Positions 259-19,937 are shown, numbered from the stretch's first letter. The stretch is 20,990 nucleotides of DNA from a virus (IMGVR_UViG_2939121850_000005), one strand, 5' to 3'. Notes: a model not told the origin generated them from the letters alone. A program made the numbers and translations.

Positions 259-266
259 TCGTCTGA

Positions 267-300
267 CAAGCCCTCGCGTTGAGGGCTTTACTGATTTTTT
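267..300 (+). terminator. Intrinsic terminator-like hairpin between convergent grxA and ybjM
   Basis: Inverted repeat aagccctc-gcgt-tgagggctt followed by a T-rich stretch ending in TTTTTT; overlaps the ybjM stop. Confidence 0.5.
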
Positions 301-665
301 CTGTGCTGTGGTTTAAACAAACTACTGATAAATAAGAAACACAGTGCCCCCAGCGCACACCAGAACACCGCGCTTAGTAACCATGCCAGCTCTTGCCAGA
401 ATGAGCGCGTCGGTGAAAAAAACAGCCGCATAATGAGCATCGAACAGGGTGCCGCCAGCATTGCGCCAAACAGAGGTTTCAGGACTTCTCTACGCTGTGA
501 AAAGAAGCTGGCGACTGCTCCAGGAAGAATGAAAAATAGCAAGCCGATTTCAGGATGCCCGGCAGCCCGAAAAGCGCCTTTCATGTGCGTCGCCAGAAAA
601 AGGCACACCACAATGAAGAGGACAAAACAGCAGATTGCCCCCGCCCAACGTTGTTTATGTTTCAC
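288..665 (-). CDS. ybjM: Inner membrane protein YbjM
   Basis: 125-aa hydrophobic ORF with several predicted TM segments; the conserved position between grxA and ybjL and the length fit E. coli YbjM. Confidence 0.85.
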   Translation of the reverse strand: MKHKQRWAGAICCFVLFIVVCLFLATHMKGAFRAAGHPEIGLLFFILPGAVASFFSQRREVLKPLFGAMLAAPCSMLIMRLFFSPTRSFWQELAWLLSAVFWCALGALCFLFISSLFKPQHRKNQ

Positions 666-934
666 TCGTTCCTCCTGACACTGCGTCTATCGAACACATT
701 TTTCGCCAGTGTGGCGTTCAGTAAGATAAAGCCGCTTCGCATTCCATGCTAATATAGGCCAACGCAATTCATATAGCCGTTGATACCTAATGTGATTACA
801 CTAGTAAAATATATTGTTACTTTACTATCGTTTAGGTGCGCTGAATGAATCTGCGCCCTGAATTCTGGTAAAAAACATTATCGTAAATTACCATTTCTTT
901 CAACAGCTTACTAGTAAACAAGAAGTTAGCCTCC

Positions 935-2620: not shown

Positions 2621-2732
2621 AACTGAAGTTGCCCTGAAAATGAAATTTTTTTGCACAACCGCAGAACTTTTCCGCAGGGCATCAGTCTTAATTAGTGCCA
2701 CTGCTTTTCTTTGATGTCCCCATTTTGTGGAG

Positions 2733-2775
2733 CCCATCAACCCCGCCATTTCGGTTCAAGGTTGATGGGTTTTTT
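2733..2775 (+). terminator. Intrinsic terminator downstream of ybjL
   Basis: 10-bp stem cccatcaacc / ggttgatggg followed by TTTTTT; probably the last host sequence before the prophage junction. Confidence 0.55.
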
Positions 2776-2855
2776 GTTGCCTGAAATTTAAGCTGTTTAA
2801 AATCATGATGTTAGAAAAACTGTTTTTTAACGATGGCGACAAAATGGCGGCGGCG

Positions 2856-3074
2856 TCAAAGAGAGAGCGCCACCTGTCCTGATTTAATTGGATGCGGCTG
2901 AACCGGATTTGACTCTTTTGGCGTTGCAATCGAACGAACAAAAGTTTCATGGGTAACAAAAGTATGGCTGCAGTTAATGTTCTGGCACTGGTTGTAACGC
3001 TCTTTGGTCAATGAAGATACCTGAAAACTGCTGCGAGTATGGGCGGCACTTCCACACAGTGGGCAAATCATCAT
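2856..3074 (-). CDS. ogr: Ogr/Delta-family zinc-finger late-gene activator
   Basis: 72 aa from the MMICPLCGS start (P2 Ogr is 72 aa); Cys pairs CPLC...CQNINC; GGGGAG about 10 nt upstream; lies at the prophage end as in P2. Confidence 0.8.
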   Translation of the reverse strand: MMICPLCGSAAHTRSSFQVSSLTKERYNQCQNINCSHTFVTHETFVRSIATPKESNPVQPHPIKSGQVALSL

Positions 3075-3255
3075 TTTTCGAGTTCTCCCCATTTTTGCTA
3101 AATTCACAATAATGATACCGCATTATTCCATTTTGCAAACTTAAAAGTTCTCCATTGCGAAGAATCATTCCATTTCGAAATCATCAATCCTCACTTCAAG
3201 CTCCAGACTGGTCGTAAAACCGTTATCCGGGCTGACGGTATGCGTCAGAGTCGTA

Positions 3256-4734
3256 ATGGTCCATTCCGCATCATCTAACGAAGCTGACTTAAACCCTAAC
3301 GTCGCCAACCGCAACAAAGGCCCGCGCCGTCAGCCGGAAAAGAATGTCTTCACCGATGAACAGATTGAGAAGCTGGAAGAAATCTTCCATTCCTCCATGT
3401 TCAACTACCAGCGCCACTGGTGGGAAGCCGGAAAAACCAACCGCATCCGCAACCTGCTGAAGTCACGCCAGATCGGCGCGACCTTTTACTTTGCCCGTGA
3501 AGCCCTGATTGACGCCCTGCTTACCGGACGTAACCAGATTTTCCTTTCCGCCAGTAAGGCACAGGCCCACGTCTTTAAGCAGTACATCATCGACTTCGCC
3601 AAAGAAGTGGATGTGGAACTGAAAGGCGATCCGATGGTGCTTCCTAACGGGGCCACGCTTTACTTCCTCGGCACCAATGCCCGCACGGCCCAGAGTTATC
3701 ACGGCAACCTGTATCTGGATGAATATTTCTGGATACCGAAATTTCAGGAGCTACGCAAAGTGGCTTCCGGTATGGCTATTCACAAGAAATGGCGGCAGAC
3801 CTATTTTTCCACACCATCCAGCCTGACCCACAGTGCTTATCCGTTCTGGTCCGGTGCGCTGTTCAACCGTGGACGCAACAAAGCCGACAAGGTGGACATT
3901 GATCTGTCCCACAGCAATCTGGCCCCCGGCCTGCTGTGCGCTGACGGGCAATACCGCCAGATAGTCACCGTGGAAGATGCGGTGCGCGGCGGCTGTAACC
4001 TGTTCGACCTTGACCAGTTGCGCATGGAATACAGCCCGGACGAATACCAGAACCTGCTGATGTGCGAGTTTGTGGACGATCTCGCGTCCGTGTTCCCGCT
4101 CAGCGAACTACAGGCGTGCATGGTGGACAGTTGGGAAGTCTGGACCGACTTTCATGCACTGGCGCTGCGCCCGTTTGGCTGGCGCGAAGTGTGGATCGGT
4201 TATGACCCGGCAAAAGGTACGCAGAACGGCGACAGCGCCGGATGCGTGGTGGTGGCACCGCCAGCCGTGCCGGGCGGTAAGTTCCGCATTCTTGAGCGTC
4301 ACCAGTGGCGCGGGATGGACTTCCGCGCCCAGGCTGACGCCATCAAAAAACTGACTGAACAGTACAACGTGACATACATCGGTATCGACTCAACCGGCGT
4401 CGGTCACGGGGTTTACGAGAACGTGAAAGCGTTTTTTCCTGCCGTCCGGGAGTTTGTCTACAACCCCAACGTTAAAAATGCCCTGGTACTCAAGGCCTAC
4501 GACATTATCAGTCACCGCCGTCTGGAGTTTGACGCCGGACACACCGACATAGCGCAGTCATTTATGGCAATTCGTCGCGCCACCACCGCCAGCGGCAACC
4601 GCCCGACCTATGAAGCCAGCCGCAGCGAAGAAGCCAGCCATGCCGATCTGGCGTGGGCAACAATGCACGCACTGTTTAACGAGCCGCTGCAGGGCGAGTC
4701 CGCCAATACCAGCAATATTGTGGAGATTTTTTGA
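3256..4734 (+). CDS. P: Terminase ATPase subunit (P2 gpP family), possibly N-terminally truncated
   Basis: 492-aa ORF; Walker-A-like KSRQIGATF and Walker-B-like LYLDEYFW, then a nuclease-like C-terminal half; about 100 aa shorter than P2 gpP as I recall it; stop overlaps the Q start. Confidence 0.75.
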   Translation: MVHSASSNEADLNPNVANRNKGPRRQPEKNVFTDEQIEKLEEIFHSSMFNYQRHWWEAGKTNRIRNLLKSRQIGATFYFAREALIDALLTGRNQIFLSASKAQAHVFKQYIIDFAKEVDVELKGDPMVLPNGATLYFLGTNARTAQSYHGNLYLDEYFWIPKFQELRKVASGMAIHKKWRQTYFSTPSSLTHSAYPFWSGALFNRGRNKADKVDIDLSHSNLAPGLLCADGQYRQIVTVEDAVRGGCNLFDLDQLRMEYSPDEYQNLLMCEFVDDLASVFPLSELQACMVDSWEVWTDFHALALRPFGWREVWIGYDPAKGTQNGDSAGCVVVAPPAVPGGKFRILERHQWRGMDFRAQADAIKKLTEQYNVTYIGIDSTGVGHGVYENVKAFFPAVREFVYNPNVKNALVLKAYDIISHRRLEFDAGHTDIAQSFMAIRRATTASGNRPTYEASRSEEASHADLAWATMHALFNEPLQGESANTSNIVEIF

Positions 4735-5762
4735 TGGGAAAGAGTAAGAAGAACCGCGCTGTGTCGACGAACCAGATTCAGCATAAAAGCCAGACTTCAG
4801 CCGAAGCATTCAGCTTTGGCGATCCCGTTCCTGTTCTGGACCGCCGCGAACTGCTGGACTATGTGGAATGCGTACAGACAGATCGCTGGTATGAGCCGCC
4901 AGTGAGTTTTGACGGACTGGCGCGAACCTTCCGCGCTGCCGTGCATCACAGTTCACCAATTGCGGTGAAATGCAACATTCTGACCAGTACCTACATCCCT
5001 CACCCGCTTCTCAGCCAGCAGGCTTTTTCACGTTTTGTGCAGGACTATCTGGTATTTGGTAACGCTTACCTGGAGAAACGCACGAACCGGTTCGGTGAAG
5101 TTATCGCCCTTGAGCCTGCTCTGGCAAAATACACCCGACGTGGGTTAGACCTGGATACCTACTGGTTTGTGCAATACGGTATGACAACCCAGCCGTATCA
5201 GTTCACGAAAGGCAGCATCTTTCATCTGATGGAACCGGATATCAACCAGGAGATCTACGGCCTGCCCGGTTATCTTTCTGCTATTCCGTCAGCCCTGCTC
5301 AACGAGTCCGCCACGTTGTTCCGCCGTAAGTATTACATTAACGGCAGCCATGCAGGCTTCATCATGTATATGACCGATGCCGCGCAAAACCAAGAGGATG
5401 TGAACAACCTCCGCAACGCGATGAAAAGCGCCAAAGGTCCGGGCAACTTCCGCAACCTGTTTATGTACTCGCCTAACGGCAAAAAGGACGGGCTTCAGAT
5501 TATCCCGTTGTCAGAGGTCGCAGCGAAGGATGAGTTTTTGAATATCAAGAACGTGAGCCGGGACGACATGATGGCGGCACACCGCGTGCCGCCGCAAATG
5601 ATGGGGATAATGCCGAATAATGTTGGGGGTTTTGGGGATGTGGAAAAGGCTAGTAAAGTCTTTGTCCGAAATGAATTAATTCCGTTACAAAAAAGGCTTA
5701 TAGAAATTAATACTTGGCTAAATGAAAAAATCATAGCATTTAATGATTACTCATTAAATTAG
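4734..5762 (+). CDS. Q: Portal protein (P2 gpQ family), 3' end recoded by AT-rich DNA
   Basis: ATG at 4734 overlaps the P stop (TGATG) with GGAGA upstream; 342 aa; base composition falls from about 53% to 27% GC near 5640 within the last 40 codons. Confidence 0.75.
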   Translation: MGKSKKNRAVSTNQIQHKSQTSAEAFSFGDPVPVLDRRELLDYVECVQTDRWYEPPVSFDGLARTFRAAVHHSSPIAVKCNILTSTYIPHPLLSQQAFSRFVQDYLVFGNAYLEKRTNRFGEVIALEPALAKYTRRGLDLDTYWFVQYGMTTQPYQFTKGSIFHLMEPDINQEIYGLPGYLSAIPSALLNESATLFRRKYYINGSHAGFIMYMTDAAQNQEDVNNLRNAMKSAKGPGNFRNLFMYSPNGKKDGLQIIPLSEVAAKDEFLNIKNVSRDDMMAAHRVPPQMMGIMPNNVGGFGDVEKASKVFVRNELIPLQKRLIEINTWLNEKIIAFNDYSLN

Positions 5763-5785
5763 ATAAAAAGGGGTTAATCACCCCT
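5763..5785 (-). terminator. Intrinsic terminator for the KAP NTPase gene
   Basis: Hairpin aggggt-taatc-acccct at 5769..5785, followed on the minus strand by TTTTTAT; lies directly between the convergent Q and KAP genes. Confidence 0.5.
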
Positions 5786-5792
5786 ATAAAAA

Positions 5793-7445
5793 TCACAAAA
5801 ATCGCCTTACACGCATTTTATTAATCGCAGATTCATCTCCAATTCTTATCAAGGCATCCCTTGCCTTTTTCCCTATACGATTCATTCTATCAGAACCATT
5901 ACTAAAATTTCCGAATTTAAGCGCCGTAGCTATTATTGAATCACCACCATCAAGAATGACATTTTTAAATAATTGATAGTAGTCATCTACTGAAGCAGCA
6001 TCCAATATTTCCTCATGTCTATCAGACCAACCATTCTGACCTGATAATTTCTTAAGAACATCATATATTGAACCATCAATATTTATAATCTTAGAATAGG
6101 CTTGAATTTTTGACAACAACTCAGTATCTCTTACGGGATGAACATTCACATAAATAGATTGAACATATTCCTTTAGAGCATCGTTACCATAATTAATAAA
6201 CTGTTCAATCAATTCACTCGCCTTAGCATTCTCTCCGAAATCCCTATATAGTCCGACAACATTATCTAAATCACTTGGAGTCACATATTTCATCCCATCA
6301 ACCACCGCTTGATATAGCTTGTCAACAACCTGATTTTGATTGTCATCAAATGAATTATGAAAGAACTGCCATGCCTCAGATAAGGATCCTCGTTTATTAT
6401 CACGCGTAATCTCCTCATTCCTTAGGCTTATTTGTCTTTGGAAACTGCTCTTATCAAGATAGCCATATCTAACCATATCAATAAGAACCTCATCAAGATC
6501 ATTCGTTTTTCTATATCCATATTTAAGCAAGGTATTAAGCCAGACTTTCTCATGGCCTTCTTCCTTGTCATTATAAGTATATATATTCCTCACTCCCCTA
6601 ATATATTCTAGTGATGGCACATCTCCCTCTGGAGAAAATCCGTAATGGCTCCAACAATACAGAGTTAATGAATGCGCAACTTCATTTGAAATTGTCTCAA
6701 CATCACCTATAATATTTGGTGTTAAGGACACGAAAAAACGTTCTATCTTTTTTAAGATTCGAATATTCTTGATACCTAAAGAAATGGAATATTTACTTAA
6801 CAAGTTATAAACATGAGAATCACCTTTATAGGCTATATCTGCGCATTCTTCTGGTGTTGGATTGTAAGTGATATCTCTATCAATGACCTTTTCTTTATAA
6901 GTAGAATAATCCTCCATACTAGCTGTGCCATTGTTAAGCAATAGAACCACCTTACAATCCTTCTGCTCTTTTAATAGAGATACTAGCCCTAAAACATCTT
7001 TAACATCTAAATTTTTGCCACGCCTTTCTAAGTCATCTATTACTACAATCATTTTAGAAACGGTCAGAAATGACATTGCTTCAAGTGTCGTAGAGAAGTT
7101 TTTTACAACAGGAACTTCTTTTAACAAACCTGCTGCTTTTCGAGAAAATGATTCAAAAAGTCCACTTGCGTTTGTTGTTGCTGTCTCCAAATCAGGTTTA
7201 TTTCCAATATATTCCTTTGTAATTGCATTCTCAAAAATAGAATACTTTAAAGAATCTAGTGAATTTATACCAAAAAGAGAGACATAACTATATCTATTAA
7301 ATGCAACCTTATCTTTATTATCTTTTAGGAACGTATTCCAAGTATAGGTTTTACCAATTCCCCATTCACCCTGTATAGCCATTACTTCTGGTTCTGTAGA
7401 TGAGATAAAATCTGACAACTGTTCTTTGATAAACTCTAAGGACAT
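5793..7445 (-). CDS. KAP-family P-loop NTPase (candidate defence cargo)
   Basis: 551 aa from the ATG at 7445 (GGAGAA upstream; the six-frame track extends it to 7637); Walker A GEWGIGKT (nt 7347..7370) and KAP-type VVIDDLERR motif; about 33% GC. Confidence 0.7.
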   Translation of the reverse strand: MSLEFIKEQLSDFISSTEPEVMAIQGEWGIGKTYTWNTFLKDNKDKVAFNRYSYVSLFGINSLDSLKYSIFENAITKEYIGNKPDLETATTNASGLFESFSRKAAGLLKEVPVVKNFSTTLEAMSFLTVSKMIVVIDDLERRGKNLDVKDVLGLVSLLKEQKDCKVVLLLNNGTASMEDYSTYKEKVIDRDITYNPTPEECADIAYKGDSHVYNLLSKYSISLGIKNIRILKKIERFFVSLTPNIIGDVETISNEVAHSLTLYCWSHYGFSPEGDVPSLEYIRGVRNIYTYNDKEEGHEKVWLNTLLKYGYRKTNDLDEVLIDMVRYGYLDKSSFQRQISLRNEEITRDNKRGSLSEAWQFFHNSFDDNQNQVVDKLYQAVVDGMKYVTPSDLDNVVGLYRDFGENAKASELIEQFINYGNDALKEYVQSIYVNVHPVRDTELLSKIQAYSKIINIDGSIYDVLKKLSGQNGWSDRHEEILDAASVDDYYQLFKNVILDGGDSIIATALKFGNFSNGSDRMNRIGKKARDALIRIGDESAINKMRVRRFL

Positions 7446-7573
7446 GTGTTTTCTCCTAGAAAGATAGCCCCGTATTATAACCCTAGAATTATAAAAGTAA
7501 TGAGCGCGCGCTCGTATCCCCGCCACGCCTGCCCGCTTTATGTAGTGTTTTTCATGCACCTGCATGACATAGG

Positions 7574-7599
7574 CAAAAGCCCGCCAGTTATGACGGGCC
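7574..7599 (-). terminator. Intrinsic terminator downstream of the 883-aa gene
   Basis: Stem gcccg / cgggc with a 10-nt loop at 7579..7598, followed on the minus strand by CTTTTG. Confidence 0.45.
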
Positions 7600-7735
7600 T
7601 CAGCATAAAAGATCCCTAAACGATCATGCGTTTTCATGCAGCATAGTTATGCAGGACTATCTATACATCGACAATCTCAGCTTGACCTCATCAGTCGACA
7701 TCAATCTATATGTCGAGTAACTTGACAGGAACCAT

Positions 7736-10387
7736 TCATTGATCCACAAGAGATAAACTAATCTTTTGCTCAACAGCGTTGAAATCGTTCTCTATACGCA
7801 CCCATAGTACTTTACCTTTGGAATACTCATTCATACGGTTAAAACCTGCAGGCAGTTTTGATTTATGTATTAACCCTGTAATTTTTCCTGTAAAGTTAAC
7901 AAAAACACCATATCTATGATCGCAATTCCGTACAGTACCTTCTAATATATCACCTGACTGATACCTAGCTTCGAACTCTGCCCATTCAGGATCGCGTATC
8001 TTTTCCGCAAATGACTTAACAGCATCAATTGCAGGTTGGATATCAGTTAGCCCGTGATATTCATCTCCAGAAATAAATTCGCCTGAAAAACTTGCTATCG
8101 TTTCACGTTGATTTACAAGAAAATCAACTAACTCCTTAGCATTAGCACTAACCATTTCTTTATTATACTGATTTTGAACTGACCCCATCCTTTCAGAGAC
8201 TCTTCTGGCAATTTGCTCAGTAGGGAAAAGAGTATCTTCTGCTAACGCGGCTAGATAGCTAATATTTGAGAGCATATCCAAATGCACAAACCCAGCCGAG
8301 GATAATCTTAGTAAGTCTTCATCAGTTATTCCAGTCTCTCTAAAATCCTCTGAAACTAAACATTGCCCCTGAAGTAAATAATCGACCTCACGAGTTATAA
8401 CCTTTGGAGAAAAACCAAACTTGACTAATCCGTTTTTTAACGCAAACAAAGGAAAGTATCCTTTAAGTCCAGTTGGACCACTTACCCCAAAATTATTATA
8501 GAACCATTTCAAAATTGCAAACCTAGTAAAATGATTAGCCCTCTCATCATCTTTTTCCGTCGAAAATATATTTTTAAGGTATGAGTTATCGCTATCATAA
8601 AATCGACGATTTAATCGTAATAACACTCTGGTCACAATATGTAAAGGAAGCGCATAGCGTCCTTCACTTTGCCTTATTTTTAAAAACTCACCTTCAGTAA
8701 TATGCCCACTAGTGCAGAACTCCAAGAAAATTTCCAAAGCCCTTCGTATATTTCTTCCTGAAAGACCAACAATCATCCTTCTTATTTGTGCATCATGTAC
8801 AAAAATAGAGTTTGCGATTGATGTTAAATAATATGAACGTTCGTCCTTGCTATATTCAACATTAAAGCCGTTAGGAAGTGAATATGAAAGAGTATTGCTA
8901 GCACTAGTTTTTGTCATTTCTTTAAGAACAAGCTGCACTCTTGAATGAAGAACATAATTAAACAACGGTGGTTCAATACGGAAAACCATATCTTTTAAAG
9001 CGGTGTCAAGAGGAGGACGATCTCTATAATTATCATAAGTTTCTTCTCTCAAGGGAAGAATTATTAGTGATCTAAACTCATTTTGGAGCCATTGAGCAGC
9101 CTGAAACATTAGCAACTGTTCAGACAAAGTTCTTTTATCACAATTATCAAGAACTATTACAACTAATTTACCGCGCTCTGTCCCACAATACCGAGTATAG
9201 GCAAGTGCAGTTTCATGTAAATCTGACTTACATTCCCTAATAATTTTAAACAATTCCTTATTATATTCATCCCCAGAAAGTAATTGCCCCTCCCCCTTAT
9301 TAAACTTATTTATCTCAACAGAATAGAGTTTTTTTAAATTATCCAACAAATCAAAATCAATATCTGGGTAAGCTAACTTACATTGTTGAATTATTTTCCC
9401 TCTAAGCCAATCATAAACTTCCCCTGAAGAAACCGGGGATTCATTCATATTAAAACGTAACCAAAGAGTGGTTTTAATAATATCATTTGGGAGCGCGACT
9501 TCTTTTAAATGATCAATGAAAGTTGTTTTTCCTGAACCAACACTGCCAACAATCAATAAAATTTTATTTTCAAGCGGAGATCGCCCTCTAAATTTTTCAA
9601 TTATTTCTTTGGGATTATCAGTATCTTCAATTAATTTAGAATCACTATTGCTTACTGGTTGAGCAGCCCTGATAATTTTATCTATTGGCTGGGTATAGCG
9701 GTCCCTGCGCTTAGATGAAATATACCCTTCACGAGCGATAAACTGTCGATCATTCAGTGTATTTGGATTAAATATATTTCCATACTCTGATATAAGTGTT
9801 GCACCAAAACTATTATGCCCCACCTCTTCGTTCTGAGCTGCCTTCCCTCCCATCATTCTCCTAGGCTTCCAGAATTTTCTAGGTTTTGATTTAGCTATGA
9901 ATTCCTCAGATAATTTCGAGAGAGCTGTAAACGAAAATTCCTCTAAAAAATTTGCACAATTTTTATCAACAGGTGATATCTCATTTAATCGGTAACTACC
10001 CTGGTTATTATCCCATTCCCCCGCAAGCCACTCATATCCATCAGTAGCTATGATTTTGGTAAGAGGATTCATACCACTCTCATATTTTGCATTCAACTCT
10101 AGCGCATATAATCGTGCTTCCTGAAAAGCGCTATCTAAATCCTCTCCAGGAGTTTTTGCTTCTACTAGTAATACAGGAACACCATTTATAATTACAAGAT
10201 AGTCTGGATAATATATTTTTTTGGTACTACCTTTACCTATCTCTAAGCTTTTAATATTTCTTTTAGTGAGTATATACTCTTTATTTATGCCAAGCCCATC
10301 AACAGATTTCTTAGTCAGAAACGGATAAATTATTTTTTGTTCGATATCACTTTCTGTTTCCTTTACTTTATTTATCTTACTACTCAT
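7736..10387 (-). CDS. Multidomain protein: restriction-endonuclease-like PD-(D/E)xK motif, P-loop NTPase and C-terminal S1/OB domain (candidate defence cargo)
   Basis: 883 aa; YPDYLVIINGVPVLLVEAK (aa 60-78); Walker A GSVGSGKTT (nt 9521..9547); Walker B VVIVLDNCD (aa 409-417); S1-like signature GDILEGTVRNCDHRYGVFVNFTGKITGLIHKSKL...GKVLWVRIEN in the last 75 aa; AAGGA RBS; about 33% GC. Confidence 0.75.
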   Translation of the reverse strand: MSSKINKVKETESDIEQKIIYPFLTKKSVDGLGINKEYILTKRNIKSLEIGKGSTKKIYYPDYLVIINGVPVLLVEAKTPGEDLDSAFQEARLYALELNAKYESGMNPLTKIIATDGYEWLAGEWDNNQGSYRLNEISPVDKNCANFLEEFSFTALSKLSEEFIAKSKPRKFWKPRRMMGGKAAQNEEVGHNSFGATLISEYGNIFNPNTLNDRQFIAREGYISSKRRDRYTQPIDKIIRAAQPVSNSDSKLIEDTDNPKEIIEKFRGRSPLENKILLIVGSVGSGKTTFIDHLKEVALPNDIIKTTLWLRFNMNESPVSSGEVYDWLRGKIIQQCKLAYPDIDFDLLDNLKKLYSVEINKFNKGEGQLLSGDEYNKELFKIIRECKSDLHETALAYTRYCGTERGKLVVIVLDNCDKRTLSEQLLMFQAAQWLQNEFRSLIILPLREETYDNYRDRPPLDTALKDMVFRIEPPLFNYVLHSRVQLVLKEMTKTSASNTLSYSLPNGFNVEYSKDERSYYLTSIANSIFVHDAQIRRMIVGLSGRNIRRALEIFLEFCTSGHITEGEFLKIRQSEGRYALPLHIVTRVLLRLNRRFYDSDNSYLKNIFSTEKDDERANHFTRFAILKWFYNNFGVSGPTGLKGYFPLFALKNGLVKFGFSPKVITREVDYLLQGQCLVSEDFRETGITDEDLLRLSSAGFVHLDMLSNISYLAALAEDTLFPTEQIARRVSERMGSVQNQYNKEMVSANAKELVDFLVNQRETIASFSGEFISGDEYHGLTDIQPAIDAVKSFAEKIRDPEWAEFEARYQSGDILEGTVRNCDHRYGVFVNFTGKITGLIHKSKLPAGFNRMNEYSKGKVLWVRIENDFNAVEQKISLSLVDQ

Positions 10388-10400
10388 ACTCTAGTCCTTA

Positions 10401-10434
10401 TCAAACCAAAAGGCACTTAATTTCTTAAGTGCCT
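10401..10434 (-). terminator. Terminator-like hairpin in the leader of the 883-aa gene
   Basis: Perfect 10-bp stem aggcacttaa / ttaagtgcct with a 4-nt loop, followed on the minus strand by TTTGGTTTG, about 15 nt upstream of the RBS. Confidence 0.4.
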
Positions 10435-10896
10435 ATAATATAGCGTCTGGTAATTTAATAAAAGTCACATGTCAATATCAAAATAAAAAGGCACCTTGAG
10501 ACTAGACCCATAAAAACAAAAAGTCAACATGTTATTTCATACAGTGTGAAAATTAAAGATTTTACAAAACAATAAGTTACAAATCAAACGCGCAATCACA
10601 TGTTGACTGACATCACATATTTAAACTGAAGTAGTAACTTCATTTGCCTTATAGTCTCATGTAACAATTACACTGTTCCTTTAGAGAAGGAACCTTATCT
10701 CTATGAGAACTGTTATATAAACACTTGATGTAAAAAAGCTCAATACCATAGCTACCGCCCATGAGGCTACAGATTGCTGCTTGGGGATATAGAAAGCACA
10801 AATTATAGTAACGATCTGATTCAATAGAGTTCATTTCCATCAAGCTAATCTTCTAGCTTTTATCGATCATTATTTCAATGCACATACAGACTCCCT

Positions 10897-11085
10897 TTAA
10901 CTGGAAACTTCCGTTGACCGGCTGTATTCATGGCTGCGAATTTTCGCCATCAGCTCGTCTGTCAGTTCGGACACCCACTGGATAGCCAGCCGCTTTTCTT
11001 CGTCGCTGCACTCACTAGCCGCTACAAGCTTGATAAAAAAATCAATACGCTGAAGCTTCAATGACTCCAAAAGATAGTCCTGCAT
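10897..11085 (-). CDS. Small hypothetical protein (62 aa) downstream of a LexA box
   Basis: ATG at 11085 preceded by AGGAGG with a 4-nt spacer (MQDYLLESLKLQRIDFF...); identity not recognised. Confidence 0.45.
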   Translation of the reverse strand: MQDYLLESLKLQRIDFFIKLVAASECSDEEKRLAIQWVSELTDELMAKIRSHEYSRSTEVSS

Positions 11086-11133
11086 CTTCCCTCCTATCAT
11101 TACACGGATACACAAAAACTGTATATACACCCA

Positions 11134-11149
11134 CTGTTTATATAAACAG
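11134..11149. promoter_or_regulatory. LexA (SOS) box CTGTTTATATAAACAG
   Basis: Perfect palindromic CTGT-N8-ACAG about 50 nt upstream of the small ORF on the minus strand; TATAAT directly adjacent on the plus strand; a weaker CTGTATATAC half-box lies at 11119. Confidence 0.5.
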
Positions 11150-11243
11150 TATAATAGGAACAGAAAAATGTAAAACTGTTTTTTGTCAGTTAATTGGATG
11201 TACTGATGTCGGTCAATAAAGCACAAAATGTTAAACAGCAGCC

Positions 11244-13637
11244 TTAGTACCATTGACGCCATTTGTCATCTTCCTGCAGCCTCTGGTTACGGTAAAAAAT
11301 ACGTAAACCGGCACCGGATGGAATGCTGCCGCCACGCAGAAGCAAATCAATCTCAGATGCACTACCTTCAAACCCCCTGGTTGTCAGTTCTGCCTCAAGC
11401 TGCAGGCGCTGCTGCTCCAAAATACTCTGTATGTATGCTTTTTTCCGCTTCGGTTTTACCAGTCTCAACCTGGCTGTCAGCTCCCGCCGTTCCTTCTGGC
11501 CCATGTTGTGGAGATATTCCTGCAGCTCCTTCTCATCCATGGTTTTAATATCGGGTAAATCACCCCCTGATTTGTTCAGATTTTCAACAGGGGGACAGTT
11601 ATTGCCACGAGTCCAAGGGGCGCAAGCGCCCTGGTCGGCTGCCGCCTCCTGAACGTCAACGGCTTTACGAACCATTTTCCACTTCACTGCATGAGTGCAG
11701 ATCTTGCCCTCTGCAATGGGTGACCAGATGCCATAAATACGAATGCCATGATCGCCATAGGCGGTCGGCTCTTCGTTGATTTCATAAGCGGTTCTGATGA
11801 GGTGATATTTACGGGGAACCAGTACGCCGCCCTGCTTCATGATGTAGGTGGCAAAACAACCAGCATCAGCAGCAGCCAGAATGGCATCAAGACGCGGGTT
11901 ATCCAGTACCGGCGCACCTGCTTTTTTGTCACCCTGTTGCCTTGCCGCCTGACCAGCCAGCAAGCGAAGTTCACGGTAAGCCTGACGCCCCGGAATACCA
12001 AAGAAGCGGAATTGCTGAACACGATGCAGAGACGCCCAGGCATTCACGTATTCAGCGTTATCACGCAGAGATTTACCCGTTTCCTTGCTGATCTCGCCAG
12101 CCAGACCACGACCGTCAATGTTCTTACTGATATATTTCGCGATGTAGCTTGTCGGCGTTCCTTTGCGCGGGTTAATCAACTCAGACTTAAAGCGCGGCCC
12201 AGTGTTATTGCCCAGCTCCTCGCGGTCTTCACGGATGGCAAACTTACGCAGTAATGCAGTGATGGCACGGCGGTCTTTTTTGCGCATGAAACACAACAGG
12301 TGCCAGTGAACTGTGCCATCATGATGCGGCTCAGCCACCCGCACGCCATACCAGCGCAACCCGGCTTTGTGCATCGCCTTACGAAATGCAGCAAACATAC
12401 CGACCAGATAATCGCTGCTTTGTCTTACCGTCGCGTTTGTCCAGGTCGGGTTTGGTCTGCCGTTATTTAGCGTGGAATGGAAACGCGACGGACAGGTGAT
12501 AGTGTAGAAAACGGCGCAGTCACCGCGCATTTCCGCGATAAGCTCCAGACCTTTAACACAGGCCATCATCTCATTGCGGCGATGCGCAGGGTTGCTGCTG
12601 CTGGCGTTTACCACATCCTCCATGTCCAGCGTGTCGCCGTCTTCGTTCACCAGTTCATGAGAACGGAAAAACTCCAGCGACTTACGACGCTGCTCACGTT
12701 TATGCATCACGGCTTCATAGCTGACATAAGGAGATGCTTTTTTGCTGACCAGGCAAACAGCGCGCAACTGCTCTTCCCGCCATTCGCAACGCATCTTCCA
12801 TAATTTCCGATACCACCAGTCGGCGCACAACATACGCGCCAGCGAACCCGGAATGAGTTCATAGGGCACGGGTTTACGGCGGTTTCTTTTCCGACGGAGT
12901 TGCTCAAACGCAGGTGGGATGACATCCAGACGCAGGGTTTCCGCTGCCACCTTTTCCCATGTCTTGCGGATTTCTTCTGGCTTAACGTCATCGGTGGCAT
13001 ACAAATCACCACAAGCTGCATCAAGGCACATACTCATATGCGCAGCTACCAGGGTGGAAAGGCGTTTCACCTGATCCTGACTCATTTCAGGCAGGATCAG
13101 CAGGCCGTCCAGCCCTTCATGGCTTGCCATAAAGCGAAAAGATGCAGATAGCTGACTGTCGCGTACATGCTCCAGTCGTTCCAGACATGGCTTAATCGTC
13201 TCACGTAAATAGCGGGAATAAGCCTTTGGCCTGCCCAGGCTGCTGAAGTATTCAATACGTTGCATCAGCGGCTTGCTGATATGGGAAGGCTGGGCGTTGA
13301 CGTCCGCCAGAATGACCATGTCTGAATTAAAACGCTGCTGCTCATGCGCCAGCTTTGCCCGGCTAATGAGCTTATCCTGCTCCATTTCGCGCTGGACAGG
13401 ATCACGTGATTCATTAAAGAAATAACGCTCCCAGACCTGATCACTCAGTGCCTCGCGGCGCAACTGTTCCTGCTCGTTATCGGCAGCGTACAGAGTGATC
13501 AGGTTTGAAAGCGTAGAAACCGGCGCAACTTCCGCCGGGTCCAGATAAGGGTTAATGGCCTTTTTCGGGCTGTTCCATGAGAATGCTGCGGCAGCCTCGT
13601 TAAAGCCGCAGCAGTTGTTCATATCGGCATGACTCAT
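11244..13637 (-). CDS. A: Replication initiation endonuclease (P2 gpA family, HUH rolling-circle Rep)
   Basis: 797 aa; HUH motif [10 protein letters not shown] and double-tyrosine motif [13 protein letters not shown]; GGAG RBS; ATGA overlap with the upstream dam stop. Confidence 0.8.
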
Positions 13638-14491: not shown

Positions 14492-14715
14492 ACAGCACCT
14501 CCGTTGTAATGTTTGCCTTTCAGTTCTGCGATTTCCTGACAGGTAATGCAAAGCTGCACTCCCGGAATGGCGCGGCGTCGTGCTGGCGGAATTGGCGCTT
14601 CACATTCAATGCAAAGTACGCGTGACACGCCCGGTGATTTGGCACGGGCTGCACGGATATGGCGCTGGCGTTCTTCTTCAACGCGCTGCTGTACGAGATC
14701 CATTGCATCAGCCAT
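14488..14715 (-). CDS. TraR/DksA-family C4 zinc-finger protein
   Basis: 75 aa; CIECEAPIP...CITCQE four-Cys finger, as commonly found in P2-like early operons. Confidence 0.7.
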   Translation of the reverse strand: MADAMDLVQQRVEEERQRHIRAARAKSPGVSRVLCIECEAPIPPARRRAIPGVQLCITCQEIAELKGKHYNGGAV

Positions 14716-14948
14716 TAGTGGATCTCCTGCGCTTCGTTCTGGATTGCTTCAGCAGTCACGCGCAGCAGTTCTGCCGCTTCCACGTGGTTTAGCTGGCGGG
14801 ATGAGATATGACACGCCAGGCTATCAAGGCGAGCAGCCATTGCTTCAGCCCTTGCCCGGCGTTCTTCCAGACGAGCCTCTGTCAGTAAAATATTAAGCCC
14901 TGCGTCATCCGGTCCGGTTTTAGTCGTGAGGGTTTCAATATTACGCAT
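14715..14948 (-). CDS. Hypothetical phage early protein
   Basis: 77 aa from the ATG at 14948 with AGGAG upstream (the track's TTG at 14954 is less likely); Ala/Arg/Glu-rich helical protein. Confidence 0.5.
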   Translation of the reverse strand: MRNIETLTTKTGPDDAGLNILLTEARLEERRARAEAMAARLDSLACHISSRQLNHVEAAELLRVTAEAIQNEAQEIH

Positions 14949-15015
14949 AATCAATTCTCCTGAATTTAGATAAAGGGATGCCCGGCGGGTTTACGCCATT
15001 AATTTCATTAGTTGG

Positions 15016-15357
15016 TTAATTCGGCATGGTTAGCCGTCTGGGAAATAAGCTCACCACTGCACGAAAATGATTCATTGCTTTAATCAGCTCCCGCTTTTCG
15101 TCAGTGGTCAGCTCATTAATGCTGATGCTATGACGTTCAGCTGGAATTTTTGCCATAAAGAATATGGCAGCCAGTGCCCGTTTATTTTGTTCATTATTGA
15201 TATCCCGTGGATCACGCATATCTTTAATAAACCGCTCAAGCTCTGACTCAATATTCAGGCCAAAAACTTTCGCCCTTAACTCCGCAATGTGATTAAGTCC
15301 ATTCAGGCGTTCACCGGGGCTTAATGGAACAGTTGCTGCAGCGCCATTAATTGCCAT
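15016..15357 (-). CDS. Hypothetical phage early protein
   Basis: 113-aa ORF with GGGGGA upstream; protein-like composition in the same early operon. Confidence 0.5.
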   Translation of the reverse strand: MAINGAAATVPLSPGERLNGLNHIAELRAKVFGLNIESELERFIKDMRDPRDINNEQNKRALAAIFFMAKIPAERHSISINELTTDEKRELIKAMNHFRAVVSLFPRRLTMPN

Positions 15358-15379
15358 ACTTCATATCCCCCAAACGCAG

Positions 15380-15604
15380 CTATCGTTCTTTGTTCTTACG
15401 GTAACGCTCAAGAGGAGATACATTTTTTCGTATCGTCTCTTTAACCTGCTCTCCCCGTAAAAACGTCCCATCCTTTAACGTGAAAAAGTAACTGCCATCG
15501 CCCGACAATGACGGATAGCAACAGAGCAAATCATCTTCAGGTACTGAATAACTCTCCCCTCTGTAACGAAACTGATAAACCACTTCACTTTCTGCCGCAT
15601 ACAT
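15380..15604 (-). CDS. Hypothetical small protein (overlaps the next ORF out of frame)
   Basis: 74-aa ORF with GGAGA upstream of its ATG; globular-looking composition. Confidence 0.35.
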   Translation of the reverse strand: MYAAESEVVYQFRYRGESYSVPEDDLLCCYPSLSGDGSYFFTLKDGTFLRGEQVKETIRKNVSPLERYRKNKER

Positions 15605-15771
15605 TTGGACTTTCTCCGTTTCCTCGTGGTCAATTCAGACAGCAATTCATCTTGTGAATGACATGGATGCCAGCGTTTTCCATCCTCACCCGTGATCCAG
15701 CCGTGACCGTAGTGCATTGCCGGGCTTTGTTTTACCAGCAGCGATGCAAATGATGGTTCTTTCGTCAGCAT
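15475..15771 (-). CDS. Hypothetical small protein, translationally coupled to the CII-like gene
   Basis: ATG at 15771 with GAGGTG 3 nt upstream, overlapping the CII-like stop; the first 50 aa look protein-like, the C-terminal half is basic and low-complexity (possible frameshifted remnant). Confidence 0.4.
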   Translation of the reverse strand: MLTKEPSFASLLVKQSPAMHYGHGWITGEDGKRWHPCHSQDELLSELTTRKRRKSKCMRQKVKWFISFVTEGRVIQYLKMICSVAIRHCRAMAVTFSR

Positions 15772-15778
15772 AAACACC

Positions 15779-16288
15779 TCACAGCAAACCGAATGAAGCA
15801 CCAAGGCCAGTCATGGTATCAACTGCACTCGCCATCGCAGGATTAGCCTGTAAACGGGCTTGCAATGAAACAGCAGCCAGCGCCATCAGTCGTGTTACAG
15901 AGTTAATGCTGCTGATAGCATCACGACGACCTGCACTGGTTTTTACATCGCCAGATACCGCACCTGCAGCAACACGCCCGATCTCTGCGGTTGCACTCAT
16001 GACGTAATGCGGTAGTTTCTCTTTTGCCACCTCATTAATCGGAACACATGGCAGACAATGAATCTGTGCCAGAAAACCATCTACCAGCGTTGAATCTTCA
16101 GTCAGATCGGTAAGCAACCAAATTTCTGGTGCGGTTAATAAATGAGGTTGAGCTGGGTTCAGTTTGTTCCGCAGAATCTGCACATTCATGCCTGCACGTT
16201 CTGCCAGTTGCACCAGATTGTGGCGCAGTGCGAATGCACGACAGGCTTCATCAAAATGTGGATGTTTGGAAACTTGGTAATCAAACAT
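15779..16288 (-). CDS. CII-like HTH transcriptional regulator (186 CII-like by position and size)
   Basis: 169 aa from MFDYQ with GAGGTG RBS; HTH-like [16 protein letters not shown]; directly downstream of the Apl/Cox-like gene. Confidence 0.55.
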
Positions 16289-16320
16289 GGTCGACACCTC
16301 TGATGTATCCCAAAATGGAA

Positions 16321-16542
16321 CTAGTTGAATACAACATTGCAATCAGTAAGTGCATCAACGGTAAGAGCAGCAAGGTTGATCATTACCTTTTCTCTTTTCT
16401 TGTCTTTCCGAAGGCGATGCCGAGGGATGCGACCGTCAGCCAGCATATCGTTAATTGTGTCGATTGAAAGACCAGTAAGTTCGCTATAACGCTCAATTGT
16501 GACATGTGGCGTATTCAGGGTTATTGAAATGTTAGGGGTCAT
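16321..16542 (-). CDS. Apl/Cox-like excisionase-type small DNA-binding regulator
   Basis: 73 aa; HTH-like [26 protein letters not shown]; first gene of the lytic-direction operon, divergent from the CI-like gene; AGGAG upstream. Confidence 0.5.
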
Positions 16543-16630
16543 GATGCAACATCTCCTATTGGCTTGTGGTGAGTCAGTTTTAATCGTGGCTTTAACTTCA
16601 CATTTCGGAGAATAGGATCACAAATCGGTT
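16543..16630. promoter_or_regulatory. Immunity switch region (divergent promoter/operator space)
   Basis: 88-bp gap between the divergent Apl-like and CI-like genes; contains 7-bp inverted repeats TCCTATT / AATAGGA about 50 bp apart. Confidence 0.4.
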
Positions 16631-17566
16631 ATGTCAACACATGAAATCACATTTCGCCATGTGGACGAAAAAAAGAAATCCTTAATCATGCAGAATCGCG
16701 GAGGGCAATCGGTTATAGATCGGATACTGAAAGCCTATGGTTTTTCTTCCCGACAAGCATTCTGTAATCACCTAGGTATATCGCAAAGTACAATGGCGAA
16801 CAGGTATGCCCGTGACACTTTCCCTGCTGATTGGGTTGTTATCTGTAGCATGGAGACTGGAGTGCCGGTCGAGTGGTTGGCATTTGGCACTGATACCGAG
16901 AAGGGAAGCATTACAAATAATGCAGAAAAAAGTCACAACAATTGTGACAGCAAGCATCAACATCTCAATAGAGAACAAGACATCCAAAATGAGAACTCTT
17001 TTACTATTAACCAAGGTGGAAAAGCAGCAATAGAGCGAATCGTTTTGGCTTATGGATTTAAGACAAGACAAGCTTTAGCTGATCATATTGGTGTATCAAA
17101 AAGTACATTAGCCAATCGTTACATGAGAGATACCTTTCCTGCTGACTGGATTATTCAATGCTCACTGGAAACCGGTGCTTCATTAACATGGCTAACCACT
17201 GGTAACGGGGCAATGTTTGAAAAGCCTCGAAACGATACTATCACTATCCCATATCATAAAATAATTGATGGATCTCTTGCTCAAGAAACCTTCTTGACTT
17301 TTGACTCTAAGTTGTTAGAAGGAACCTTTCTGCAACCTTTAGCAGTATTCATTGATGAGGAAATATATATTGTAGAATCAAAATTTAATGAAGTTACTGA
17401 TGGCAAGTGGCTTGTGAATATTGAAGGGAAAATAAGTATCAAAGATTTGACTCGCATACCCGTTGGTATGGTTAAAGTTGTAGGCACTAACGCAAGTTTT
17501 GAATGCTTACTTACTGACATTATCGTTTTGGCAAAATGTAAAAGAGTTTTTACTAAAAATGTATAA
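16631..17566 (+). CDS. CI-like repressor with tandemly duplicated HTH domain (186 CI-type)
   Basis: 311 aa; two about 64-aa repeats (aa 24-87 and 129-192, about 60% identical) each with an HTH-like core (ILKAYGFSSRQAFCNHLGISQSTMANRY / IVLAYGFKTRQALADHIGVSKSTLANRY); about 37% GC; start codon uncertain (no clear SD). Confidence 0.6.
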   Translation: MSTHEITFRHVDEKKKSLIMQNRGGQSVIDRILKAYGFSSRQAFCNHLGISQSTMANRYARDTFPADWVVICSMETGVPVEWLAFGTDTEKGSITNNAEKSHNNCDSKHQHLNREQDIQNENSFTINQGGKAAIERIVLAYGFKTRQALADHIGVSKSTLANRYMRDTFPADWIIQCSLETGASLTWLTTGNGAMFEKPRNDTITIPYHKIIDGSLAQETFLTFDSKLLEGTFLQPLAVFIDEEIYIVESKFNEVTDGKWLVNIEGKISIKDLTRIPVGMVKVVGTNASFECLLTDIIVLAKCKRVFTKNV

Positions 17567-17577
17567 AGAGAAACATC

Positions 17578-18522
17578 ATGACTGAACCAACCAATAAAGA
17601 TAGCGAAATAAAAAAACACCTATTAGAATTTCTTGATTCACAGTCTGAAAATATAGCAAAACACTTCTACTCTCATATAAAAGACTTAATAGAAGCAGGA
17701 GAGCTTTCTGAAGCTCATAATAACCTAGCGCTAATTGAAAAATACATAACTAGGCCACCGATGGATGAAGAACCCAATATAAATGAAAATAAAGCCAATA
17801 AAAGAAAAAATGTAAAATCACTTGAACCTAATAATTATGTAGAACATATAATACAATTAGAAGAACGAAACAGCATATTAACTCTACAGTTAGAGCATTA
17901 TACTCAGGATCTTAATAGAAAAAACGCAATAATCGAAAACAACGTAAAACAAATTAATTCATTGATTAGTGAAAATAAGGAACTCCGTAGCCAAGTACAG
18001 CAACAAAGAATCGATGATAAAATCCCCACCTATGTTAACGATGTTAAATCAGATCTTGGTAGTGATGACAAACATTTTATATTGATGTCTATTATCTGGT
18101 CTATTGCAGGGGTATTTTTTGGCTTCCTTGCAGTAGTATCTGCTTTTTTTACATTATACATGAACTTAGATTTAAAAAATCTCACTAACCTTCAGTTAAT
18201 ATATATCTTCACGCGAGGATTAGTTGGAATCGCCATTCTTTCATGGCTATCATATATCTGCCTTAGTAACTCAAAAAAGTACACACATGAATCGATCAGG
18301 CGAAAAGATCGTCGACATGCTTTGATGTTTGGTCAAGTTTTTTTGCAGATATACGGTTCTACAGCAACTAAAGAGGATGCAATAGAAGTCTTTAAGGATT
18401 GGAATATTTCAGGTGACTCTGCATTTTCAGGTCAGACAGAGCAACCACCGAGTTTTGCGTCATTTTTGAATACAATCAAAGACAAAGTTAAAGTAACTGG
18501 AAGTGATAAAGAAACAGATTAA
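17578..18522 (+). CDS. Coiled-coil / two-TM membrane protein of unknown function (candidate exclusion or abortive-infection moron)
   Basis: 314 aa starting 11 nt after the CI-like stop; charged coiled-coil N-terminal half and two hydrophobic helices (FILMSIIWSIAGVFFGFLAVVSAFF, GLVGIAILSWLSYICL); strongly AT-rich. Confidence 0.6.
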   Translation: MTEPTNKDSEIKKHLLEFLDSQSENIAKHFYSHIKDLIEAGELSEAHNNLALIEKYITRPPMDEEPNINENKANKRKNVKSLEPNNYVEHIIQLEERNSILTLQLEHYTQDLNRKNAIIENNVKQINSLISENKELRSQVQQQRIDDKIPTYVNDVKSDLGSDDKHFILMSIIWSIAGVFFGFLAVVSAFFTLYMNLDLKNLTNLQLIYIFTRGLVGIAILSWLSYICLSNSKKYTHESIRRKDRRHALMFGQVFLQIYGSTATKEDAIEVFKDWNISGDSAFSGQTEQPPSFASFLNTIKDKVKVTGSDKETD

Positions 18523-18567
18523 TCATGAACATGTATGCTACTAAGTAAAAAATACATTGAATACTGT

Positions 18568-18575
18568 TGTTATAT
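18568..18575. repeat. 8-bp target-site duplication TGTTATAT (left copy)
   Basis: Identical octamer immediately flanks both IS ends. Confidence 0.6.
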
Positions 18576-19891
18576 GGGTCTTCCCTTGTTGTGGTGGCTG
18601 AAGGCATGATAATGGTGTATTTAATCGCCAGAGGTCACCGCCATGGACGAAAAGTCCCTCTACGCTCATATTCTCAACCTGTCCGATCCGTGGCAGGTAA
18701 AGTCCCTTTCTCTCGATGAAAATGCCGGTTCTGTTACTGTCACTATTGAGATCGCTGAAAACACCCGGCTAGCCTGTCCGACCTGCGGTAAATCCTGTTC
18801 TGTTCACGATCACCGTCATCGTAAATGGCGCCATCTTGATACCTGCCAGTTCACCACTATTGTTGAAGCCGATGTTCCACGAATTATGTGTCCGGAGCAT
18901 GGCTGCCTGACGTTGCCTGTTCCGTGGGCTGGCCCCGGAAGCCGGTATACGTTGCTATTCGAATCGTTCGTTCTCTCATGGCTGAAAATCAGCACCGTTG
19001 ATGCTGTCAGGAAGCAACTTAAGCTCAGTTGGAATGCGGTTGACGGCATTATGACCCGGGCAGTTAAGCGAGGTCTTGCCCGGATAAAAAAGCCATTATC
19101 CGCCCGTCATATGAATGTGGATGAGGTCGCCTTTAAAAAAGGACATCGTTACATAACGGTGATCTCCGATCGCGATGGTCGGGCGCTGGCCTTAACGGAT
19201 GATCGCGGCACAGAGAGTCTTGCCGGCTATCTTCGCACGCTCACTGATGGGCAGTTGCTGGCTATCAAAACGCTCTCAATGGACATGAACGCGGGCTATA
19301 TAAGAGCAGCGCGTATCTACTTACCCAGTGCGGTTGAGAAAATCGCCTTTGACCGCTTCCATGTGGCGAAGCAACTGGGCGAGGTAGTTGATAAAACCCG
19401 TCAGAATGAACATCCGCACCTCCCTGTTGAAAGCCGACACCAGGCAAAAGGAACCCGCTTCCTGTGGCAGTACAGCGATAAGTGGATGACCGAATCCCGG
19501 CAGGAAAAGCTGATGTGGCTGCGTGCACAGATGAAGCTGACGAGCCAGTGCTGGGCGCTGAAAGAGCTGGCAAAGGATATCTGGAACAGGCCATGGAGCG
19601 AGGAAAGACGGAGTGACTGGCAGAGATGGTTGGCGCTGGCGGCTAACAGTGACGTTCCCATGATGAAAAATGCCGCGAAAACGATAGGAAAAAGGCTGTA
19701 CGGGATCCTGAATGCGATGCGACACAGTGTCTCAAACGGAAATGCGGAGGCACTTAACAGCAAGATCAGGCTGCTGAGGATAAAAGCCAGGGGATACCGA
19801 AACCGGGAGCGCTTTAAACTGGGGGTGATGTTCCACTACGGAAAGCTGAATATGGCGTTCTGAGCCTTCCCACCATGATCGGGGAAGACCC
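18576..19891 (+). mobile_element. ISL3-family insertion sequence (1316 bp)
   Basis: Imperfect terminal inverted repeats beginning GGGTCTTCCC at both ends (left 18576..18604; right 19864..19891, reverse complement); one transposase ORF; flanked by an 8-bp direct repeat. Confidence 0.75.
18643..19863 (+). CDS. ISL3-family transposase
   Basis: 406 aa; N-terminal Cys/His zinc-finger (CPTCGKSC...CPEHGC), DDE-type core, C-terminal SNGNAEALNSKIRLLRIKARGYRNRERF typical of ISL3 transposases; GAGGT RBS. Confidence 0.75.
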   Translation: MDEKSLYAHILNLSDPWQVKSLSLDENAGSVTVTIEIAENTRLACPTCGKSCSVHDHRHRKWRHLDTCQFTTIVEADVPRIMCPEHGCLTLPVPWAGPGSRYTLLFESFVLSWLKISTVDAVRKQLKLSWNAVDGIMTRAVKRGLARIKKPLSARHMNVDEVAFKKGHRYITVISDRDGRALALTDDRGTESLAGYLRTLTDGQLLAIKTLSMDMNAGYIRAARIYLPSAVEKIAFDRFHVAKQLGEVVDKTRQNEHPHLPVESRHQAKGTRFLWQYSDKWMTESRQEKLMWLRAQMKLTSQCWALKELAKDIWNRPWSEERRSDWQRWLALAANSDVPMMKNAAKTIGKRLYGILNAMRHSVSNGNAEALNSKIRLLRIKARGYRNRERFKLGVMFHYGKLNMAF

Positions 19892-19899
19892 TGTTATAT
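19892..19899. repeat. 8-bp target-site duplication TGTTATAT (right copy)
   Basis: Identical to 18568..18575, directly abutting the right IS end. Confidence 0.6.
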
Positions 19900-19937
19900 A
19901 CAGTTAAATTTAGCCCTCTGATATGAGGGCATTTTTT

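Follow-up and report, generated by a model that had tools for sequence, protein, structure and literature searches.

The 883-aa gene of this prophage is preceded by a stem-loop that, judging from how it changes among relatives, is a real and conserved element under selection as an RNA structure. It lies on the minus strand (10411..10434), between a sigma-70 promoter and the ribosome binding site (RBS). We propose that it is probably an intrinsic terminator, which would insulate the 883-aa gene and attenuate the gene's own promoter, giving low and buffered expression. The structure, its conservation, the covariation in its stem and its fixed position are direct observations, as are the promoter signature and the lack of other terminators or leader structures. 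A leader-embedded intrinsic terminator is itself a known kind of element, and the one described here is an ordinary regulatory element that is well supported.

The whole stretch of DNA analysed (the window, 20,990 nucleotides) is E. coli chromosome with a decayed P2/186-like prophage adjoining ybjL. On the minus strand, a Dam methylase gene precedes replication gene A (11244-13637). Then come a 62-aa gene and a GC-poor stretch, which contains genes for the 883-aa protein and for a KAP-family NTPase. Portal and terminase are encoded on the strand opposite to the 883-aa gene. Comparison with prophages whose site is empty or otherwise filled (L204, L203) gave the edges of an inserted gene cassette of ~3.1 kb and ~35% GC (7654..10756, minus strand). 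Backbone homology ends at 10757 against L204 and at 10737 against L203 (phage SEN8); at the other edge it is back at 7653 against both. In the cassette, the 883-aa gene is flanked by a 5' regulatory region and a short 3' UTR. Its site, between gpA and the portal gene gpQ, is the known cargo hotspot (old/tin site) of P2-like phages (Rousset et al. 2022, PMC9122126; PMC13586616).

The prophage is a remnant. Its terminase gene is truncated, and late gene D is only a fragment, adjoining ogr. An ISKox3 (ISL3-family) transposase stands between the prophage integrase and the CI region, according to the annotation of the identical locus L001 (window 1-5800 and 14500-20990). Despite this decay, more than 100 E. 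coli genomes share the two cargo genes with their regulatory regions, intact and identical in sequence.

The regulatory region was found identical in 107-108 of the 5,426 complete E. coli genomes. In BLAST searches of these genomes and 50,697 phage records (E <= 10), the promoter, leader and hairpin travel only with the 883-aa gene. The remaining matches were at chance level, and the one examined, in E. coli 042, was not in a P2-like prophage. When the collection was scanned with the promoter block, two among the at least 120 matches listed were this cassette. A coding sequence conserved in an unrelated family of phages dominated those matches.

The 883-aa gene (7736..10387, minus strand) encodes a protein with three Pfam assignments. 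They consist of a PD-(D/E)xK nuclease-like HSDR_N domain, a P-loop NTPase and a C-terminal S1 RNA-binding domain, the last one matching bS1. The protein falls in phrog_14719 (unknown function), and PADLOC 2.0 gave no confident family for it. Some relatives show faint nSTAND_NTPase5 matches on the P-loop part. It is plausible that the gene is an uncharacterised single-gene anti-phage defence candidate. Its product is probably harmful or toxic; we infer the toxic or defensive role. Within the text covered by a term search, the P2-hotspot literature (PMC9122126; PMC13586616) contains no mention of 5' terminators, of a cassette promoter or of the 883-aa family. Likewise, titles and abstracts on type III toxin-antitoxin (TA) systems contain no description of the cassette element or of this gene.

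We recovered the loci of relatives (numbered with an L) from genomes, IMG/VR and metagenomes, and the 883-aa homologues form a graded series of identity. All relatives at 65-100% identity occupy the gpA-to-portal hotspot in various P2-like prophages. At 49-57% identity, four of the six loci are in the hotspot (the Proteus, Morganella and Providencia clade), and L035 and L208 are elsewhere. Every locus recovered from Enterobacterales (Escherichia, Enterobacter, Hafnia, Yersinia, Serratia, Proteus, Morganella and Providencia) is at the hotspot. The 883-aa gene is usually alone at the hotspot, so the KAP NTPase gene of the window is a separate insertion.

The stem-loop computation agrees with the initial annotation, which had reported a perfect 10-bp-stem hairpin with a U-rich tract at 10401..10434 on the minus strand. 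Its arms (10411-10420 and 10425-10434) are complementary at all 10 positions and enclose a 4-nt loop. Stem-loop computation and conservation delimit the element as AGGCACUUAA-GAAA-UUAAGUGCCU; read along the minus strand, AGGCACTTAA-GAAA-TTAAGTGCCT is followed by TTTGGTTTGA. With 10 bp, no mismatch, 4 G-C pairs and -13.4 to -13.9 kcal/mol, the stem is as stable as expected for an intrinsic terminator. The 40-nt segment folds at -13.9 kcal/mol (z = -4.2), and none of 200 shuffles equalled it. The tail UUUGGUUUGA (10401..10410, minus strand) is interrupted by GG, and with T at six of its first eight bases it has the U-run of an intrinsic terminator. It is followed by a Shine-Dalgarno (SD) sequence, AAGGA (10399-10395), and by the ATG (10387-10385), which together span 10385..10399 on the same strand. 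The hairpin ends 23 nt from the ATG. The 5.9 kb of AT-rich stretch present six terminator-like sites, against 3.4 +/- 2.4 expected. One such site is thus unremarkable here, and the weight of the argument rests on conservation and not on this single sequence.

We compared about 15 diverged versions of the cassette (49-100% protein identity) at the P2/186-like hotspot, and the hairpin was found in ~13 of the 15 distinct cassettes. Only in the Serratia type (L022, L042) is the hairpin missing, although the promoter is there. Where present, the hairpin ends 16-29 nt ahead of the ATG, mostly 21-23 nt. The U-run, SD and spacer fill this gap, which leaves no room for a promoter between hairpin and RBS. 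In the ten alignable variants, 91% of the stem cells are paired, against 23-51% with slid partners. Four stem pairs show compensatory double changes (e.g. G-C to A-U, C-G to U-A), and G-U wobbles are tolerated. This pattern fits an RNA structure and not a DNA palindrome. Other variants (L024, L036/L205, L206 and L209) have an unrelated stem sequence, with a strong hairpin and 5-9 U at the same position. Among six close relatives, identity is 98% in the hairpin, 82% in the coding sequence, 81% in the promoter block and ~61% in the middle of the leader. By these values the hairpin is the most strongly constrained element of the cassette among close relatives. In ~24 homologues from outside P2 prophages, no hairpin lies 30 nt or less from the start; this contrast is confounded because these homologues are far more distant and GC-richer.

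The tails of the hairpins are not uniform. L019, L021, L032 and L206 show an uninterrupted U-run of 7-9, and several variants have an A-run ahead of the stem. The E. coli-type variants present interrupted U-tracts (UUUUGGUUU, UUUAUUAUA, and UUUGCCAUA in L016), and the L016 tail is weak, with T at only three of eight positions. To judge from these tails, the E. coli-type elements may be weak terminators. The interrupted tracts, like the hairpin-less Serratia-type cassette, are points against a terminator role. The interrupted tracts would suit a hairpin that acts mainly after transcription, as protection against RNase E and/or as a translation enhancer or standby site (with the U-rich stretch) at a set distance from the SD. 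The near-constant 21-23 nt to the ATG would also suit it, as would the Proteus/Morganella/Providencia clade, in which the hairpin is possibly very near the 5' end of the transcript. Nevertheless, the constant spacing is what minimal packing of U-tract, SD and spacer gives. Moreover, four independent variants carry 7-9 uninterrupted U and several have the A-run. This is the textbook shape of a terminator, and a stabiliser needs neither feature. We consider a mainly post-transcriptional function quite unlikely.

The promoter signals are upstream of the hairpin on the minus strand. The -35 hexamer TTGACT (10522..10527) is invariant in 11 distinct cassette variants. The -10 hexamer TAGTCT (10499..10504) follows after 17 nt, and transcription is predicted to start at ~10492. 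TTGACT, the 17-nt spacer and TAnnnT do not change in the 11 variants, and the remaining -10 positions vary. Fixed critical positions with variable non-critical ones are the signature of a working sigma-70 promoter, and on this pattern such a promoter is conserved upstream of the hairpin. At the predicted 5' end of the transcript there is a conserved box, GCCTTTTT (10485..10492, minus strand). Its block, (A/G)TGCCTTTTA, also given as (A/G)UGCCUUUUA, is kept in all 11 variants (alignment A1). Between the conserved promoter block and the hairpin, ~50 nt of AU-rich leader are barely alignable. This middle portion (10435..10484, minus strand) is hypervariable and unstructured.

An element abutting the -35 box, CTGTATGAAATAACAT (10529..10544, minus strand), has the form CTGT-N8-ACAT (CTGTAT-N6-ACAT). 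Its CTGT and CA are invariant in alignment A1. The form CTGT-N8-ACAT is present in 10 of the 11 variants, and L024 has CTGT-N8-TCAG. The heterology index of the element is 10.4-15.4, compared with 1.9-4.5 for the boxes upstream of tum-like genes. It is about the third-best LexA-type site in the 21-kb window by a matrix built from ~23 sites, which is adequate for ranking and not for absolute thresholds. Control of the cassette promoter by LexA through this putative weak LexA-like element is possible, though less likely than not. Two other candidate sites were rejected. A CRP-like TGTGA-N6-TCAAC (10617-10602) is centred near -117, a non-canonical position, and is poorly conserved. The Ogr/Delta type requires TGT-N12-ACA, and the spacing here is N8.

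The same region had been described as carrying a thrice-repeated AAAGTCA(A)CATGT motif, with the copies read as operator sites for some regulator. The stretches do exist (10461-10475, 10520-10534 and 10599-10608), but the claim of three copies is weak. Allowing two mismatches, AAAGTCAACATGT matches at 10520, at 10598 (minus strand) and at an unrelated site, 15601. These three matches compare with 0.75 expected, and 2 of 100 shuffles reach three. The copy at 10461 matches only with a gap. What might suggest operators is the relation of copies 2 and 3. They form a significant 15-nt inverted repeat (10522-10536 and 10594-10608, 57 nt apart) with 14/15 matches (93% complementary), and none of 500 shuffles gave its equal. 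Copy 3 (10594..10608, no strand assigned) is the upstream arm of this repeat, and in other cassettes its region keeps a semi-conserved TCAAYAT core near -100 (alignment A1). On the other hand, 9 of the 11 other variants show no significant inverted repeat at that position, so it is mostly specific to the window. Copy 2 is the -35 hexamer itself together with the right half of the CTGT-N8-ACAT element, and it alone recurs upstream of homologues. Copy 1 falls within the hypervariable leader, and the other cassettes have nothing that corresponds to it. Enrichment of the motif in the window is marginal. Operator function for these copies is thus very unlikely.

The order promoter, terminator, gene is the classic layout of an attenuator, and read-through could then be regulated. 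The switch might be SOS, infection, an RNA or protein acting in trans at the 5' box, or a complex of Nus/boxA type, and the gene would be induced on demand. Some features are consistent with it. The 5' box is kept in all 11 variants and resembles the 3' arm of the hairpin, and the CTGT-N8-ACAT element by the -35 box is conserved. In addition, the box agrees at 6-7 of 9 positions with boxA (UGCUCUUUA). Its variable positions are within the boxA core. However, RNAalifold on six leaders recovered the terminator hairpin as the only conserved structure, with no antiterminator alternative. The leader is hypervariable between box and hairpin. A search of Rfam with 10000-11400 (E <= 5) gave two chance matches, both outside the leader. 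By eye, no conserved ORF was seen in the leader sequences of the variants; in the window the only candidate is ATG-TGA, and L010 lacks an ATG altogether. The LexA-like box is weak (heterology index 10-15).

The likeness of the box to the 3' arm corresponds to an 18-nt direct repeat of 78% identity (10394-10411 and 10471-10488). One copy is the first part of the leader (GTGCCTTTTTATTTTGATATTGAC), and the other runs from the hairpin 3' arm to the SD (GTGCCTTTTGGTTTGATAAGGAC). The repeat reaches significance in only 2 of 10 loci, the window and L010 (p ~0.001-0.006); in the eight other variants it does not. We rejected an antiterminator formed by the 5' box: its likeness to the 3' arm and tail does not co-evolve across loci, and hand pairing of the box with the 5' arm gives no more than 4-6 bp. 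Sequestration of the SD was also rejected. In the minimum-energy fold of the window sequence, the U-tract and SD are paired to leader bases 30-47, a pairing that is not conserved. Regulated read-through therefore seems unlikely to us, and we retain the terminator with unswitched read-through.

The transcription that the terminator would meet comes from the phage genes upstream. The upstream edge of the cassette cuts the phage dinI gene, leaving a pseudogene (10724..10885, minus strand) with a stop at codon 11 and a truncation near residue 54. With DinI of SEN8 as query, tblastn gave 46% identity over residues 1-54, with the internal stop. A 64-aa ORF (10649-10843), already suspected to be non-coding, is the in-frame remainder of this pseudogene, running into the cassette. 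It has no Pfam, PADLOC or PHROG match.

Next to the pseudogene is an SOS-type unit (10897..11151, minus strand) formed by LexA boxes (11151-11132 and 11136-11117) and the 62-aa gene (11085-10897). The heterology index is 3.7 for the box at 11132-11151 and 7.7 for the one at 11117-11136. These two boxes upstream of the 62-aa gene, TACTGTTTATATAAACAGTG and AACTGTATATACACCCACTG, are strong and overlap, and L010 and L016 have equivalents. The 62-aa protein is 95% identical to SEN8_47 and matches phrog_698 (function unknown). By gene and box content, the unit resembles the antirepressor-type, SOS-inducible unit known in 186-like phages. The p95/tum SOS operon of phage 186, which has a strong LexA box, a small gene and a dinI-like gene directly downstream of gene A, shares its layout with this upstream neighbour. 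Unlike in that operon, dinI is a pseudogene in the window, and the cassette hairpin is the first terminator that the unit meets. The terminator scan found none between the SOS-type unit and the hairpin. In the window, L013, L019 and L021, the hairpin is the sole same-strand terminator-like site between gpA/tum/dinI and the 883-aa gene.

At the other end, a backbone terminator, GCCCGTCATAACTGGCGGGC then TTTTGCCTAT (7569..7598, minus strand; stem 7598-7579 plus T-run), ends the cassette transcript just ahead of the cos-like GGCGTGGCGGGGA (7529-7517). Of 62 related prophage loci, nearly all carry this hairpin ~50 nt before GGCG(T/A)GGCGGGG. Where a prophage has an empty site, it is the first thing that the transcript of dinI meets, ~130 nt past that gene. 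The cassette would have landed between dinI/tum and the backbone terminator with cos, pushing this terminator 3 kb away. Since the insertion displaces it, the cassette hairpin becomes the first terminator before the gene.

This end shows other features. Just before cos, the backbone terminator has GCATGA repeats on both sides (CTGCATGAAAACGCATGATCG ... TGTCATGCAGGTGCATGAAAAAC; 7540-7650, minus strand), which are kept at the same place in L010, L013, L016, L018, L021, L024 and L204. A role in packaging or terminase binding is conceivable for them, and so is a regulatory one. The 614-aa KAP ORF (5793-7637, minus strand) is over-extended. Its first 64 codons cross the backbone terminator and the cos-like site (7445-7637). 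Residues 1-46 match phrog_28685, and the KAP match (phrog_4740) begins at residue 65, where AGGAG and an ATG (7445) are found. The real KAP gene is probably 7445-5793. Its position beyond cos from the 883-aa cassette suggests that it probably occupies a second, independent cargo site.

Other cargos at the site differ in this respect. E. coli ATCC 8739 (L212, 6352-6412) has an unrelated cargo with the terminator GAGGCGATGTCAATCAGATATCGCCTT then GTTTTTTGTC, 54 nt past dinI and 33 nt ahead of the ATG. There is no room for a promoter of its own, and from this arrangement the cargo would be expressed only via read-through from the SOS unit. A 5' terminator was nonetheless a minority feature in the survey of 62 distinct cargo regions at the site, and ~10 of 16 sampled cargos with plus-strand genes have none. 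Most other cargos lack it, so insulation is not a general need of the site. It is a property of some cassettes.

The cassette would then be laid out as a weak LexA-box-like element, a sigma-70 promoter, a ~50-nt leader, a terminator, SD and ATG. The 23 nt that separate the hairpin from the ATG are too few for a promoter, so transcription of the 883-aa gene depends wholly on polymerases that pass the hairpin. The first job of the hairpin would be to stop transcripts from the SOS-inducible tum/dinI unit and from the early gpA operon. The second would be to attenuate the cassette's own promoter. The outcome would be a probably toxic protein at a low, buffered level. One fact argues against the insulator. 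A pure insulator is expected upstream of the cassette promoter, yet the hairpin is downstream of it. Termination itself, read-through that would be partial and constitutive, and a toxic or defensive protein are our reading of the sequences. The initial annotation, too, had placed an attenuator or insulator between the RBS and any upstream promoter. Covariation, replacement hairpins, the upstream promoter and the absence of a second terminator all point the same way.

This cassette is an example of how a cargo of a prophage hotspot may wire itself into the transcription of its host phage, with its own promoter and a terminator set against the RBS. Placed downstream of SOS-inducible and early operons, a probably harmful nuclease/NTPase would thereby not be over-expressed. 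Cloning the 883-aa gene with its native promoter includes the terminator, and assays would consequently depend on read-through. If read-through were regulated, the cassette would be a simple system in which to study how a prophage immunity gene is induced.

Among known systems, type III TA loci (ToxIN, AbiQ/antiQ, CptIN and TenpIN) have the order promoter, non-coding RNA, Rho-independent terminator and effector (PMC3401426, PMC5086642). The cassette shares this order, including a terminator before the effector gene, as well as the location on a mobile element and an anti-phage role, here a putative one; the effector of the cassette also carries an RNA-binding domain. By analogy with toxI-terminator-toxN, promoter, leader and terminator could form a separate small RNA gene of ~90 nt. 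Its RNA would be a partner of the S1-domain protein, as antitoxin or decoy sensor, and the terminator would set the ratio of RNA to protein. Selection on the promoter, the 5' box and the hairpin agrees with this idea, which, if true, would put a repeat-less layout of type III TA kind on an NTPase-type immune protein.

Nevertheless, the differences are considerable. Tandem RNA repeats are absent from the cassette: TRF (score >= 30) found none, and the repeat search gave short two-copy matches only. The RNA body is hypervariable and not conserved. The element is missing in L022/L042 and in all non-P2 homologues, despite the same protein architecture. The effector has the PD-(D/E)xK/P-loop/S1 composition and is not an RNase of the ToxN/AbiQ type; Pfam (HSDR_N, S1 and P-loop only) and PADLOC gave no match to a ToxN, AbiQ, CptN or TenpN endoribonuclease. 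A small RNA gene at this place is highly improbable.

Like the known cargos of the P2 hotspot (old/tin site), the cassette brings an AT-rich gene between gene A and the portal gene, on many P2-like backbones. Like the trp and pyrBI leader attenuators and riboswitch platforms, it has a promoter, a stem-loop with a U-run and an RBS, with expression via read-through. In contrast to those attenuators and riboswitches, it presents no conserved antiterminator, leader peptide or aptamer. From this comparison, the cassette hairpin looks less like a switch than like a fixed damper and insulator.
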